This document shows positions 2,573-8,042 of a stretch of DNA of 8,042 nucleotides, in pieces. Position 1 is the first letter of the stretch, and each line of letters begins with the position of its first letter. The notes under the pieces are model-generated. The model made no database searches. It worked only from the letters and a program-made list of their open reading frames with translations, and was not told the origin of the DNA. Origin of the DNA: Octopus sinensis (taxonomy: Eukaryota); assembly GCF_006345805.1 (NCBI RefSeq), contig NW_021828668.1:1-8042 (forward strand), given 5' to 3'. A program made the translations under genes and the position numbers.

Positions 2573-2603
<31 letters not shown>

Positions 2604-2611
2604 TATAGAAA

Positions 2612-2664
2612 GGAGCTTCTACAGGATAGTACTGTTTCATCAAGGAAAATATTCAGGAGCTTCA
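2612..2664 (-). ncRNA. Decayed second hammerhead motif on the opposite strand
   Basis: Reverse complement is TGAAGCTC-CTGAATA-TTTTCCTTGAT-GAAA-CAG-TACTATC-CTG-TA-GAAGCTCC. It has the same layout, but core G8 is replaced by U and stems I and II are imperfect. Confidence 0.5.
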
Positions 2665-2710
2665 CTGAAGATTTCTCTTGAATGAAACAGACTAGGCTGT
2701 AGAAGCTCTT
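2655..2710 (+). ncRNA. Minimal type I hammerhead ribozyme motif, near-intact
   Basis: Stem I is AGGAGCTTC (2655-2663) / GAAGCTCTT (2702-2710). Core is CUGAAGA (2665-2671). Stem II is TTC/GAA with loop TCTT, closed by a U-U mismatch (2672-2683). GAAA lies at 2684-2687. Stem III is ACAG/CTGT around ACTAGG, a near-palindrome. The GUA triplet (2699-2701) predicts cleavage after 2701. Deviations: an extra A at 2664 and the U-U pair at 10.1/11.1. Confidence 0.7.
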
Positions 2711-2788
2711 CTATATAATAAATAATTTACTTGCTATGTATTGAGTACCTTACTTACTGTGGTTAACCCCGGATCAACCCGGGACCTA

Positions 2789-2855
2789 CATATATATATA
2801 TAATATATATTATATAGATATATTATATATATATAGATATATATATATATATATA
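2789..2855. repeat. Imperfect (TA)n microsatellite
   Basis: Read directly from the sequence. Confidence 0.92.
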
Positions 2856-3507: not shown

Positions 3508-3943
3508 GGATCTTTTCGGTTTGAACGGCAGTTTTTAACATAATTTCTAGGTAACTTAAAAATGTTAAACTTCGTATACTGGTAGAATGTGTTTATAAAA
3601 CATCTTTTTCTCTTGGTTTTCTTGACAAAATTCTGTAGTTTGTAAGATATTTGTGGTTTTTTTTCTTCAATTTCTGCAATTTCAACCAATCACTGACGTC
3701 TGTTGAGGTAAAAAAACATTCTGTGCCGTATGAATATGTCCTTAGTTTAAGAAACAGATTTGGTTTATTTACATTTGTGAAGAAAAAAAAGATACCCTTC
3801 CCCTCACCCCTAACCCTAACCCTAACTAACCCTAACCCTAAAATAGATTGAAATGCAATAGATCGATAGAAGGGTTATAATTATGGGTGACAATTTCATA
3901 TGACACCGCTAGAAAAAAACTGCCGTTCAAACCGAAAAGATCC
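3508..3943. mobile_element. Non-autonomous DNA transposon (MITE-like), 436 bp, perfect 29-bp terminal inverted repeats; superfamily unassigned
   Basis: Left TIR GGATCTTTTCGGTTTGAACGGCAGTTTTT (3508-3536) is the exact reverse complement of AAAAACTGCCGTTCAAACCGAAAAGATCC (3915-3943). The interior is AT-rich and non-coding. No target-site duplication is visible. Confidence 0.88.
3795..3841 (-). repeat. Interstitial telomere-type repeat (TTAGGG)n inside the MITE
   Basis: Five perfect CCCTAA units (3808, 3814, 3820, 3830, 3836), one truncated CTAA, and variants CCCTTC and CCCTCA. Confidence 0.9.
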
Positions 3944-5085: not shown

Positions 5086-5304
5086 ATTGGTTTCAGATTT
5101 CGGAACAAGGCCTAGAAATTTCTGGCGAGGAGATTAAATCGACATCATCGATCCCAACGTTCATCTGGTACTTATTTCATCGACCCTGGAGGGATGAAAC
5201 ACAAATGTTAGCGACGGCAGAATTTGAACTCATAACGTGGCGCTGAAGAAATGCTACCAAGCATTTTGTCCGCTGTGCTAACGATTCTGCCAAGTCGCCG
5301 CCTT
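5086..5304 (-). mobile_element. Family-B SINE (tail variant 2), moderately diverged
   Basis: Colinear with 1650-1815 (CATCGATCCCA..CTGGTACTTATTTCATCGACCC..GGATGAAA..GAATTTGAACTCA..GTGCTAACGATTCTGCCA..TCGCCGCCTT). The tail reverse complement is AATTTCTAGGCCTTGTTCCGAAATCTGAAACCAAT. Confidence 0.87.
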
Positions 5305-5330: not shown

Positions 5331-5577
5331 TAAGGTGGTGGATTGGAAGAATCGTTTGAACGGGGAACAAAATGCATAGGTGTAGGAGTGGCTGTGTGGT
5401 AAGTAGCTTGCTTACCAACCACATGGTTCCGGGTTCAGTCCTACTGTGTGGTACCTTGGGCAAGTGTCTTCTACTATAGCCTCGGGCCGACCAAAGACTT
5501 GTGAGTGAATTTGGCAGACAAAAACTGAAAGAAGCCCGTCGTATATATGTATATATATATATATATATATATAATAT

Positions 5578-5626
<49 letters not shown>

Positions 5627-5955
5627 TTGTGAGTCTGTGTTTGTCCCGCAACATCGCTTTGACAACGATCTGGTGTGTTTTACGGTCCCCGTATCTTAGC
5701 GGTTTGGCAAAAGAGACCGATAGAATAAGTACTAGGCTTCCAAAGAATAAATCCTGAGATCGATTTGCTCGACTAAAGGCGGTGCTCCAGCATGGCCGCA
5801 GCCAAATGACGGAAACAAGTAAAAGAGTAAAGAGTAAAGAGAGCAGTATTTACTCTGGCTCTTGAAGTCTGAGTTCAAATCCTGCCATGGTCAAATTTAA
5901 TATAATCGACTCAACCCCTCTCTTTGAATTTCTGAGTTTGTACTTAATTTAGCAG
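5331..5955 (+). mobile_element. Diverged family-B SINE split into 5331-5378 and 5842-~5955 by a family-A insertion; carries an internal deletion
   Basis: TAAGGTGGTGGATTGGAAGAATCGTT...AAAATGCAT | AGCAGTATTT...TCTGAGTTCAAATCCTGCCATGGTCAA rejoins into a family-B head. It then jumps to TAATCGACTCAACCCCTCTC..AATTTCTG..TTGT, the family-B 3' region. Confidence 0.75.
5379..5841 (+). mobile_element. Full-length family-A SINE, young copy
   Basis: Same head (GGAGTGGCTGTGTGGTAAGTAGCTTGCTTACCAACCACATGGTTC), body, internal (TA)n(TG)n (~5542-5643) and (GAGTAAA)n tail as 855-1293. Confidence 0.92.

Positions 5956-7612: not shown

Positions 7613-7698
<86 letters not shown>
7613..7698. repeat. (TTA)n trinucleotide microsatellite
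   Basis: Read directly; one 1-nt slip near 7654. Confidence 0.97.
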
Positions 7699-7699
<1 letters not shown>

Positions 7700-7912
7700 G
7701 GCGAGCTGGCATAATCGTTAGCACGCCGGGCAAAATCCTTAGGGTATTTCATCCGTCTTTACGTTCTGGGTTCAAATGCCGCCGAGGTCGATTTATCTTT
7801 CATCTTTTCGGGATCGATAAAATAAGTACCAGTGAAACACTGGTGGGGGGGGGGCATGTAACCGACTCATCTCCACTTCCCACCGAGCTACCGTTTTGGC
7901 ACAAAATTGAAA
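7698..7912 (+). mobile_element. Family-B SINE (tail variant 2), followed by an (ATA)/(TTA) tract
   Basis: A-box-like TGGCATAATCG (7707-7717), B-box-like GGTTCAAATGC (7769-7779), body GAGGTCGA..TTTCATC.TTTCGGG.TCGATAAAATAAGTACCAG, and tail ..GGCACAAAATTGAAA. Confidence 0.88.
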
Positions 7913-7944
7913 TAATAATAAAAACTATTATTATTATTACTATT

Positions 7945-8042
7945 AATGCGGCAAGCTGGCAGAATTGTTAGCTCGCCGGGTGAAATACTTTAGGTTATTT
8001 CGTCCTCTTTATGTTCTGAGTTCAAATTCCGCCGAGGTCGAC
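7945..8042 (+). mobile_element. 5' part of another family-B SINE, truncated by the window edge
   Basis: GCGGCAAGCTGGCAGAATTGTTAGCTCGCCGGGTGAAAT...CTGAGTTCAAATTCCGCCGAGGTCGAC. Confidence 0.88.

Follow-up and report, generated by a model that had tools for sequence, protein, structure and literature searches.

Inverted insertions of a Hydra-clade Penelope-like element in Octopus sinensis bear junction marks that suggest twin copying of one capped RNA

Penelope-like elements (PLEs) leave inverted and tailed insertions by a mechanism that is called undefined in the available part of PMC8557442 and that was left open in the corresponding part of PMC3846280. The Hydra clade of these elements is marked by a C-terminal GIY-YIG endonuclease, the motifs DKT, RW(K/R) and CxCx5C, a (TA)n target and a hammerhead ribozyme, as set out in the accessible sections of Craig et al. 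2021 (PMC8557442). Hammerheads of the minimal type I form lie in the pLTRs of PLEs, have a palindromic helix III region and are reported as pairs, one on each strand and separated by 100-700 bp (Cervera and De la Pena 2014, PMC4209133, from the portion available). For PAc, a PLE of the Poseidon clade, the available text of Frangieh et al. 2024 (PMC11167929) describes extension of both target strands in vitro and two internal start sites of reverse transcription that bound the tail. In that system the uncleaved RNA was the main substrate, and the ribozyme was weak without protein (PMC11167929, same sections). Lastly, Penelope palindromes of Adineta vaga consist of inverted pLTRs with a junction palindrome, a one-sided tail and a TATA-like box in the pLTR, and in the accessible part of Arkhipova et al. 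2013 (PMC3846280) they are read, tentatively, as the outcome of self-priming on an antisense template.

The window, that is, the whole stretch of 8,042 nucleotides of Octopus sinensis DNA that was analysed, contains an inverted insertion of about 195 bp, with two arms placed head to head inside (TA)n. It is one of at least 508 such palindromes in the genome. Family positions are counted here from C3 of the ribozyme core, with window position 2665 as zero. The target, a (TA)n repeat tract, flanks the insertion on the left (2557-2600) and on the right (2790-2855), and nearly all printed copies of the family lie in or beside (TA)n. The short arm (2597-2656, minus strand) was overlooked by the first-pass annotation. 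It is the reverse complement of the ribozyme region and extends from the catalytic core to just past AATAAA (family position +60); its core reads CUGAAUA with G8 lost, which makes it a broken copy of the ribozyme. At the junction stands G2657 (plus strand), a base that the element does not have at that place. It is likely the cap-derived base of the tail arm, with the ambiguity that it also fits the other arm. The native 5' strand of stem I follows (2658-2663, plus strand), and its first base, A2658 (family position -6), is the putative start of transcription. An extra A lies between stem I and the core (2664, plus strand); it is missing from 29 of 29 other fetched copies and is thus specific to this copy, as had been suspected. 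The core region (2665-2686, plus strand) comprises CUGAAGA at 2665-2671, a U-U pair between U2672 and U2683, a 3-bp stem II with a 4-nt loop, and GAA at 2684-2686. Stem III (2687-2700; 4 bp, with a loop of 6 nt here and 8 nt in the family) and the GUA site, which ends at A2701, complete the motif (2687-2701, plus strand), and the cut would be expected after 2701. The 3' strand of stem I (2702-2707) opens a run to AATAAA, where short arms end (2702-2722, plus strand). The PLE tail of about 70 nt (2723-2789, plus strand) is present on one arm only, and in full elements it continues into the ORF's beginning.

Compared with the natural copy L006, the window copy contains 11 single-base indels and 4 substitutions. 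It is either decayed or, more likely, mis-assembled; error seems likelier than decay because the copy sits on an 8-kb contig. Contigs from 4 of 22 listed sequencing runs have the family letters at several of the window deletions, and none of those listed spans the copy. In the computed fold, positions 2598-2725 form a single hairpin (-57.7 kcal/mol, z -10), and the pair probability of stem I is predicted at about 1e-23. The window copy is therefore predicted to be dead as a ribozyme, because its inverted arm pairs with the ribozyme. Elsewhere in the window there is a short (CCCTAA)n run at 3808-3841, an interstitial telomere-like repeat. Short interspersed repeats are present in several copies (852-1290, 5376-5840, 1620-1810, 5130-5300 and 7690-8042), which we take to be octopus tRNA-derived SINEs.

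The motif had been assigned to the pseudo-LTR of a Penelope-like element as a type I hammerhead, and this was borne out by ORF-bearing copies in the same genome. The partner element (family A) was traced from one copy with non-inverted upstream sequence to the beginning of the ORF, and from there to full units. A full unit is about 5 kb long and consists of ribozyme, tail, a 2.1-kb ORF, a microsatellite-rich 3' UTR, and again ribozyme and tail. The longest frames that were read have 688, 675 and 652 aa, and all of them are interrupted or unfinished at one end. The single ORF encodes a reverse transcriptase (RT) followed by a C-terminal GIY-YIG endonuclease, as judged from the motifs and from the domains of homologues. 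DKT, RWR and a CxCx5C linker are present in family A, with RWK in a second family (B, below) and in the homologues, and no CCHH was seen by eye in the endonuclease. Scoring of 8000 candidates gave 1310 homologues; among the 120 listed, many carry PF26215, one PF01541 and one PF00078. A direct Pfam scan of two ORFs returned only one weak and unrelated match, and a PDB profile search returned nothing relevant. Most of the listed homologues lie on contigs of 2.3-3 kb, which is close to unit length, so some of them may be element transcripts or circles. The hammerhead in the pLTR, the (TA)n target and the one-sided tail are all present, as in the Hydra clade, and by these sequence characters the element is a Hydra-clade PLE. 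Its length of about 5 kb, which is due to the 3' UTR, is above the <3 kb of the clade, a general and not a strict trait. The 3' UTR (in L148:2550-5800) contains 2-2.5 kb of TG/TA microsatellite-like sequence that is common to the copies, and simple repeats are thereby spread with the element. Units with internal deletions also form tandem arrays, in which they measure about 420 bp at C9:87.42 Mb (L066/L067) and about 245 bp at C16:42.875 Mb; the units of the C9 array carry the ribozyme, the tail and the ORF start and have a retrozyme-like look. Further, unrelated hammerhead-like motifs were observed at L234:2127 (plus), at L029:99 (plus) and in L241 (minus, 2722 from its end).

The architecture of the arms was read at 60 loci, fetched in position order on C1 and corresponding to the first 91 of 100 listed core matches. 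Forty of the 60 are two-armed: 16 are short on both arms, 24 are long on both and none is mixed. In all 39 pair rows, one of which joins two neighbouring copies, one arm ends near +60, just after AATAAA, and the other is longer, with the full tail to about +130 in 37 rows and a partial tail in 2. Arms as long as 3.9 kb have these same two outer ends, and one short and one longer arm are found in 48 of 50 palindromes that lack the core. In our own reading of the 24 long pairs, 6 are near-symmetric, the tail arm is longer in 13 and the short arm is longer in 5. The two arms of a pair also agree in sequence. Alleles at +27 are mixed between arms in 0 of 36 cases, against a mean of 12.4 and a minimum of 4 in 5000 shuffles. 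In addition, rare substitutions are mirrored in both arms at three loci within a partly biased set of 64 pairs, and one-arm substitutions in the same set number 22 in all. Gene conversion, polishing of the assembly, or subfamilies that were active at different periods could also account for this sharing of alleles. The autonomous element has two allele types, and both occur. Terminal inverted repeats at both ends were not found; the tail is on one side only, and the junctions vary. Three inverted insertions (L033, L034 and L035) are joined through a 6-9 nt repeat of stem I, with one arm ending at the cleavage site.

Short palindromes were defined as two cores no more than 30 nt apart, which gave 508 loci in the genome. 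Their arms usually go no further than A(-6), where stem I begins, and the native base at -7 is kept in none of the first 50 of the 508. The junctions of these first 50 comprise 21 perfect palindromes on AGCT, 9, 5 and 3 examples of three other types, and 12 that are unique. At 60 loci both arms reach -6 and filler lies between them. In 100 listed arms of this kind the next base is C in 78, T in 11, G in 3 and A in 8. The 8 arms with A belong to four loci that read native sequence further, and once these read-through arms are set aside, a C that is not part of the element is found in 78 of 92 arms (counted by eye). A script count over 15 fetched loci gave 23 C, 3 T and 4 A in 30 arms. As a control, among 7 arms that stop at the cleavage site and have filler, C is the first added base in 1. 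At the 24 loci with TATATA within 10 nt of the arm start, the base before A(-6) is G at 10 and T at 3; 4 are native, and 7 are otherwise rearranged. Four insertions of the type joined through the stem I repeat are among these 24 loci. The lone G before A(-6) is encoded by neither the element nor the target. In a promoter, the first T of the TATA box usually lies near -30. Among 141 arms with native upstream sequence, a number that includes repeated fetches of one place, TATAWAWR starts 29 nt before A(-6) in 115; in 8 others it starts at -27 to -30, and 18 lack it. An extra G is described as a cap mark at the 5' junctions of full-length LINE-1 insertions in the available part of PMC11702581. 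We infer that the edge at A(-6), the extra C or G and the TATA box are together the marks of a capped RNA start. On the 3' strand of stem I, GAAGCT too is followed by C, so a one-base fold-back could supply the extra base; a longer run of this kind (CCTT) was not seen in the 100 listed arms.

The window copy is probably a dead-end insertion, in which both cut ends of (TA)n primed RT on the same capped RNA and both cDNAs ran off its 5' end. Transcription would start at the first base of stem I and the RNA would be capped, so that the ribozyme would form the 5' end of the RNA. The endonuclease would cut both strands of the (TA)n target, and each target 3' end would prime RT at one or the other of the two sites bordering the tail. 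Both cDNAs would run along one sense RNA, or along RNAs of one locus, and at the 5' pLTR they would reach the cap after about 66 and about 136 nt, where a C would be added by RT opposite the cap. The 3' ends of the two cDNAs would be joined, mostly through the self-complementary AGCT and otherwise through short fillers. If the protein engaged the 3' pLTR instead, the same process would yield the long inverted arms. Since the arms read through an intact cleavage site and terminate in the cap mark, the template would have been uncleaved. The product would have no promoter, and on either strand the antisense arm would be transcribed first, so a hairpin is predicted to trap the ribozyme. The start site, the cap and the cleavage are all deduced from DNA.

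Several other explanations were weighed. First, one cDNA, or an antisense template, might loop at AGCT and copy itself. This fold-back would explain the identical arms, the near-symmetric junctions of long pairs (6 of 24 within about 60 nt) and the 21 of 50 short junctions that are perfect palindromes on AGCT, and self-priming is proposed for rotifer PLEs in the available text of PMC3846280. However, at most of the 50 listed loci each arm has its own extra C, with filler between the two. Also, in 5 of 18 asymmetric pairs the arm without the tail exceeds the other in length, which a copy of the tail arm could not do; pure fold-back from the tail arm was rejected on this point. In addition, a 6-bp palindrome 8 nt upstream was used in only 3 of 50 filler loci and in none of the first 50 short palindromes. 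For these reasons fold-back is considered rather unlikely. Self-priming by way of a 4-bp hairpin that forms within a stem I of 9 bp was likewise rejected, as the native stem I proved to be 6 bp.

Secondly, the insertions might be a self-propagating non-autonomous family (SINE-, retrozyme- or MITE-like) that is copied as a unit of 200 bp, a view taken in the first-pass annotation. The high copy number and the uniform outer ends are in keeping with it, but the junction varies among the 50 copies (21 perfect, 9, 5, 3 and 12 unique). Both allele types of the autonomous element are present, arms reaching 3.9 kb share the two ends, the promoter region is lacking and no terminal inverted repeat covers the tail end, so we regard such a family as quite improbable. 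Third, long palindromes are unstable, and the short ones might be remnants of longer inverted insertions whose unstable centres were later deleted. The 53 palindromes without a core, with their scattered junctions, agree with this. Deletion of centres, however, would not produce arms that both stop at one base with a C foreign to the element after it, nor the single G that separates (TA)n from A(-6), and it is held to be very unlikely.

These 53 loci also bear on cleavage. In 13 of the 50 that were fetched (two pairs being near-duplicates), both arms end at +37 to +41, and the predicted cut, between +38 and +39, falls inside this zone. Eight arms end at +39; one is blunt, and C was added in 1 of the 7 others, which have filler. 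This weakly suggests that a small share of templates is cleaved and uncapped. The hint is weak because symmetric deletions also cluster nearby and some of the ends are assembly errors.

The window motif appears from its sequence to be a hammerhead ribozyme motif of a known class and an ordinary member of it. The type I elements occur in order at the coordinates first assigned to them, as claimed, but the 9-bp stem I of that description did not hold. Its outer three pairs come from the inversion junction, and the pLTR of the element itself has AGCUUC/GAAGCU, a stem of 6 bp. In native copies CUGANGA, GAAA and UH occur in order with three helices. The near-palindromic stem III plus loop of 14 nt is real in the window copy and peculiar to it, and is not a family trait; in the family this segment has 16 nt, of which 12 or 14 are self-complementary. 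The label minimal was also withdrawn: in the published sense it stands for a helix III that is absent or of 1-2 bp, which makes a dimer necessary, whereas a stem III of 4 bp with a loop of 8 nt can form within a monomer. The U-U pair had been thought unusual, yet the same pair is present in 14 of 25 published Hydra-clade families by our own count in File S2, the part of PMC8557442 used here. A relaxed type I descriptor matched once in the window and nowhere else there, and it matched none of 500 block-shuffled windows. The Rfam scan, which covered the window copy only, gave sub-threshold miRNA and repeat-driven matches, due to the hairpin, and no hammerhead match even at E 10. The 26-nt core (2665-2690) has 2794 exact matches in the source genome. 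A genome search gave 1063 first-look candidates, of which 40 were scored and 30 fetched, one of them being the window; the 29 others are nearly identical to one another. The expected family conservation was found in part. Recurrent variants occur only at N7, loop II and loop III (p 0.003) and thus spare the core and stems, with counts that are inflated by places fetched twice in a way that leaves the pattern unaffected, and compensatory pair changes were not found within the family.

The predicted hammerhead fold of the native RNA has -7.3 kcal/mol against -8.5 kcal/mol for the lowest-energy fold, and native stem I has a predicted probability of at most 0.2 in longer context. A dimer helix of the native motif is still computed to be favourable (-12.8 to -15.2 kcal/mol), and cleavage as a dimer is possible. 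On these models cleavage by the native ribozyme is likely weak or dependent on assistance. The marginal fold is in line with the low activity of metazoan PLE hammerheads that is noted in the available part of PMC4209133. That the motif is a chance by-product of the hairpin and was never a ribozyme is extremely improbable: the missing Rfam hammerhead match and the weak predicted fold speak for it, but none of the 500 shuffles matched, the motif lies in the pLTR of a hammerhead-bearing clade, the variants spare the core and stems, and two other elements in the same genome have the same fold with other stems.

A second, younger Hydra-like PLE (family B) is present in the same genome, with 49% identity in the RT piece. 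It has uninterrupted frames of 721-728 codons and its own hammerhead (L226:2463-4595, with copies on C17, C1, C2, C12 and C13). Family B forms 507 short palindromes with an edge near A(-17). Among 49 listed junctions, 8 show the stop plus C (GAAT+C), none is the C-free GAATTC, and 2 arms pass the edge. One tail arm and one short arm were found in 31 of 32 typed pairs, with 3 loci untyped. The edge is softer than in family A: both arms reach -17 at 54 loci, and most of the 50 listed read native sequence further. A TATA box at -29 from A(-17) was not found. Family B thus repeats most of the junction pattern, the cap mark in part and the TATA box not at all. The tails of families A and B, about 70 nt each and just behind AATAAA, have in common a TATTGAG(T/C)AC-like word (window 2737-2749; tail of L226). 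A similar word ends a published Hydra family, according to the accessible part of the supplement of PMC8557442, and follows a third hammerhead in L234, near 2170-2200. From its sequence the word is possibly a protein-binding site.

The promoter layout is not general, because the Penelope element of D. virilis has a TATA-less internal promoter, as described in the available text of PMC2377424. Beyond the window copy, a wider model is offered tentatively and is somewhat doubtful. PLEs in general may twin-prime on one sense RNA, with one primer at each tail boundary. In family A the ribozyme would be the capped 5' end, and cleavage would decide the outcome: uncleaved RNA would give promoter-less hairpins (about 40% of two-armed events), while RNA that is cleaved and circularised would allow RT to go beyond the start, so that a live copy regains its upstream promoter. 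Small RNAs against the element may also derive from the hairpins of about 65 bp, of which there are hundreds.

In LINE-1 twin priming two primers act on one RNA, and the two cDNAs cover different parts of it. The two cDNAs of the insertions described here overlap almost wholly, which gives an inverted duplication, unlike LINE-1 twin priming. The extra G from the cap is common to both systems, as far as the accessible sections of PMC11702581 go. Non-LTR retrozymes likewise carry a type I hammerhead and are PLE-related and non-coding. They are, however, head-to-tail tandem repeats in the part available of 10.64898/2026.07.22.740005, whereas the window copy and 508 others are head-to-head and dispersed.

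Among PLEs, family A resembles the minimal hammerhead elements of PMC4209133 in the type I motif, its place in pLTRs and the palindromic helix III region. Compared with the available description there, it differs in a helix III of 4 bp with an 8-nt loop, a short helix II and the lack of a G10.1-C11.1 pair. With the Hydra-clade PLEs of PMC8557442, as far as that source was accessible, family A shares a canonical hammerhead with a frequent U-U pair, the one-sided tail and inverted 5'-truncated copies. It differs from them in its unit of about 5 kb with a microsatellite-rich 3' UTR (<3 kb in the clade), a tail of about 70 nt (30-40 in the clade) and a stem III whose loop has 8 nt (1-3 nt in the Hydra rows). 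Hydra-1_Obim in the same source is not this family, since its listed hammerhead and N-terminal protein differ by eye. Short run-off palindromes with cap marks are found in family A and are not described for Hydra-clade PLEs in the available part of PMC8557442. A literature search, which did not extend to subscription journals, Repbase and most supplements, turned up no account of cap marks or of twin run-off where the inverted arms of PLEs are joined. The ribozyme and the clade are already known; the junction evidence is new and testable.

The Adineta vaga palindromes (PMC3846280) are alike in their inverted pLTRs, junction palindrome, one-sided tail and TATA-like pLTR box. The junction bases found here point to a sense, capped template copied twice, and thus argue against the antisense self-priming proposed in the available text of that study. 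The proposed twin copying would fit the in vitro behaviour of PAc; PMC11167929, in the sections available, is silent on inverted junctions, the RNA 5' end and caps, and the genomic record described here ties one start site to each arm. The short junctions of the two young families, about a thousand in all, preserve the polarity of the template, the 5' end of the RNA and the way in which the two start sites are paired, and the question of insertion is thereby reducible to two simple tests. Twin copying of the front end of a capped RNA would explain an inverted structure that has long been puzzling.
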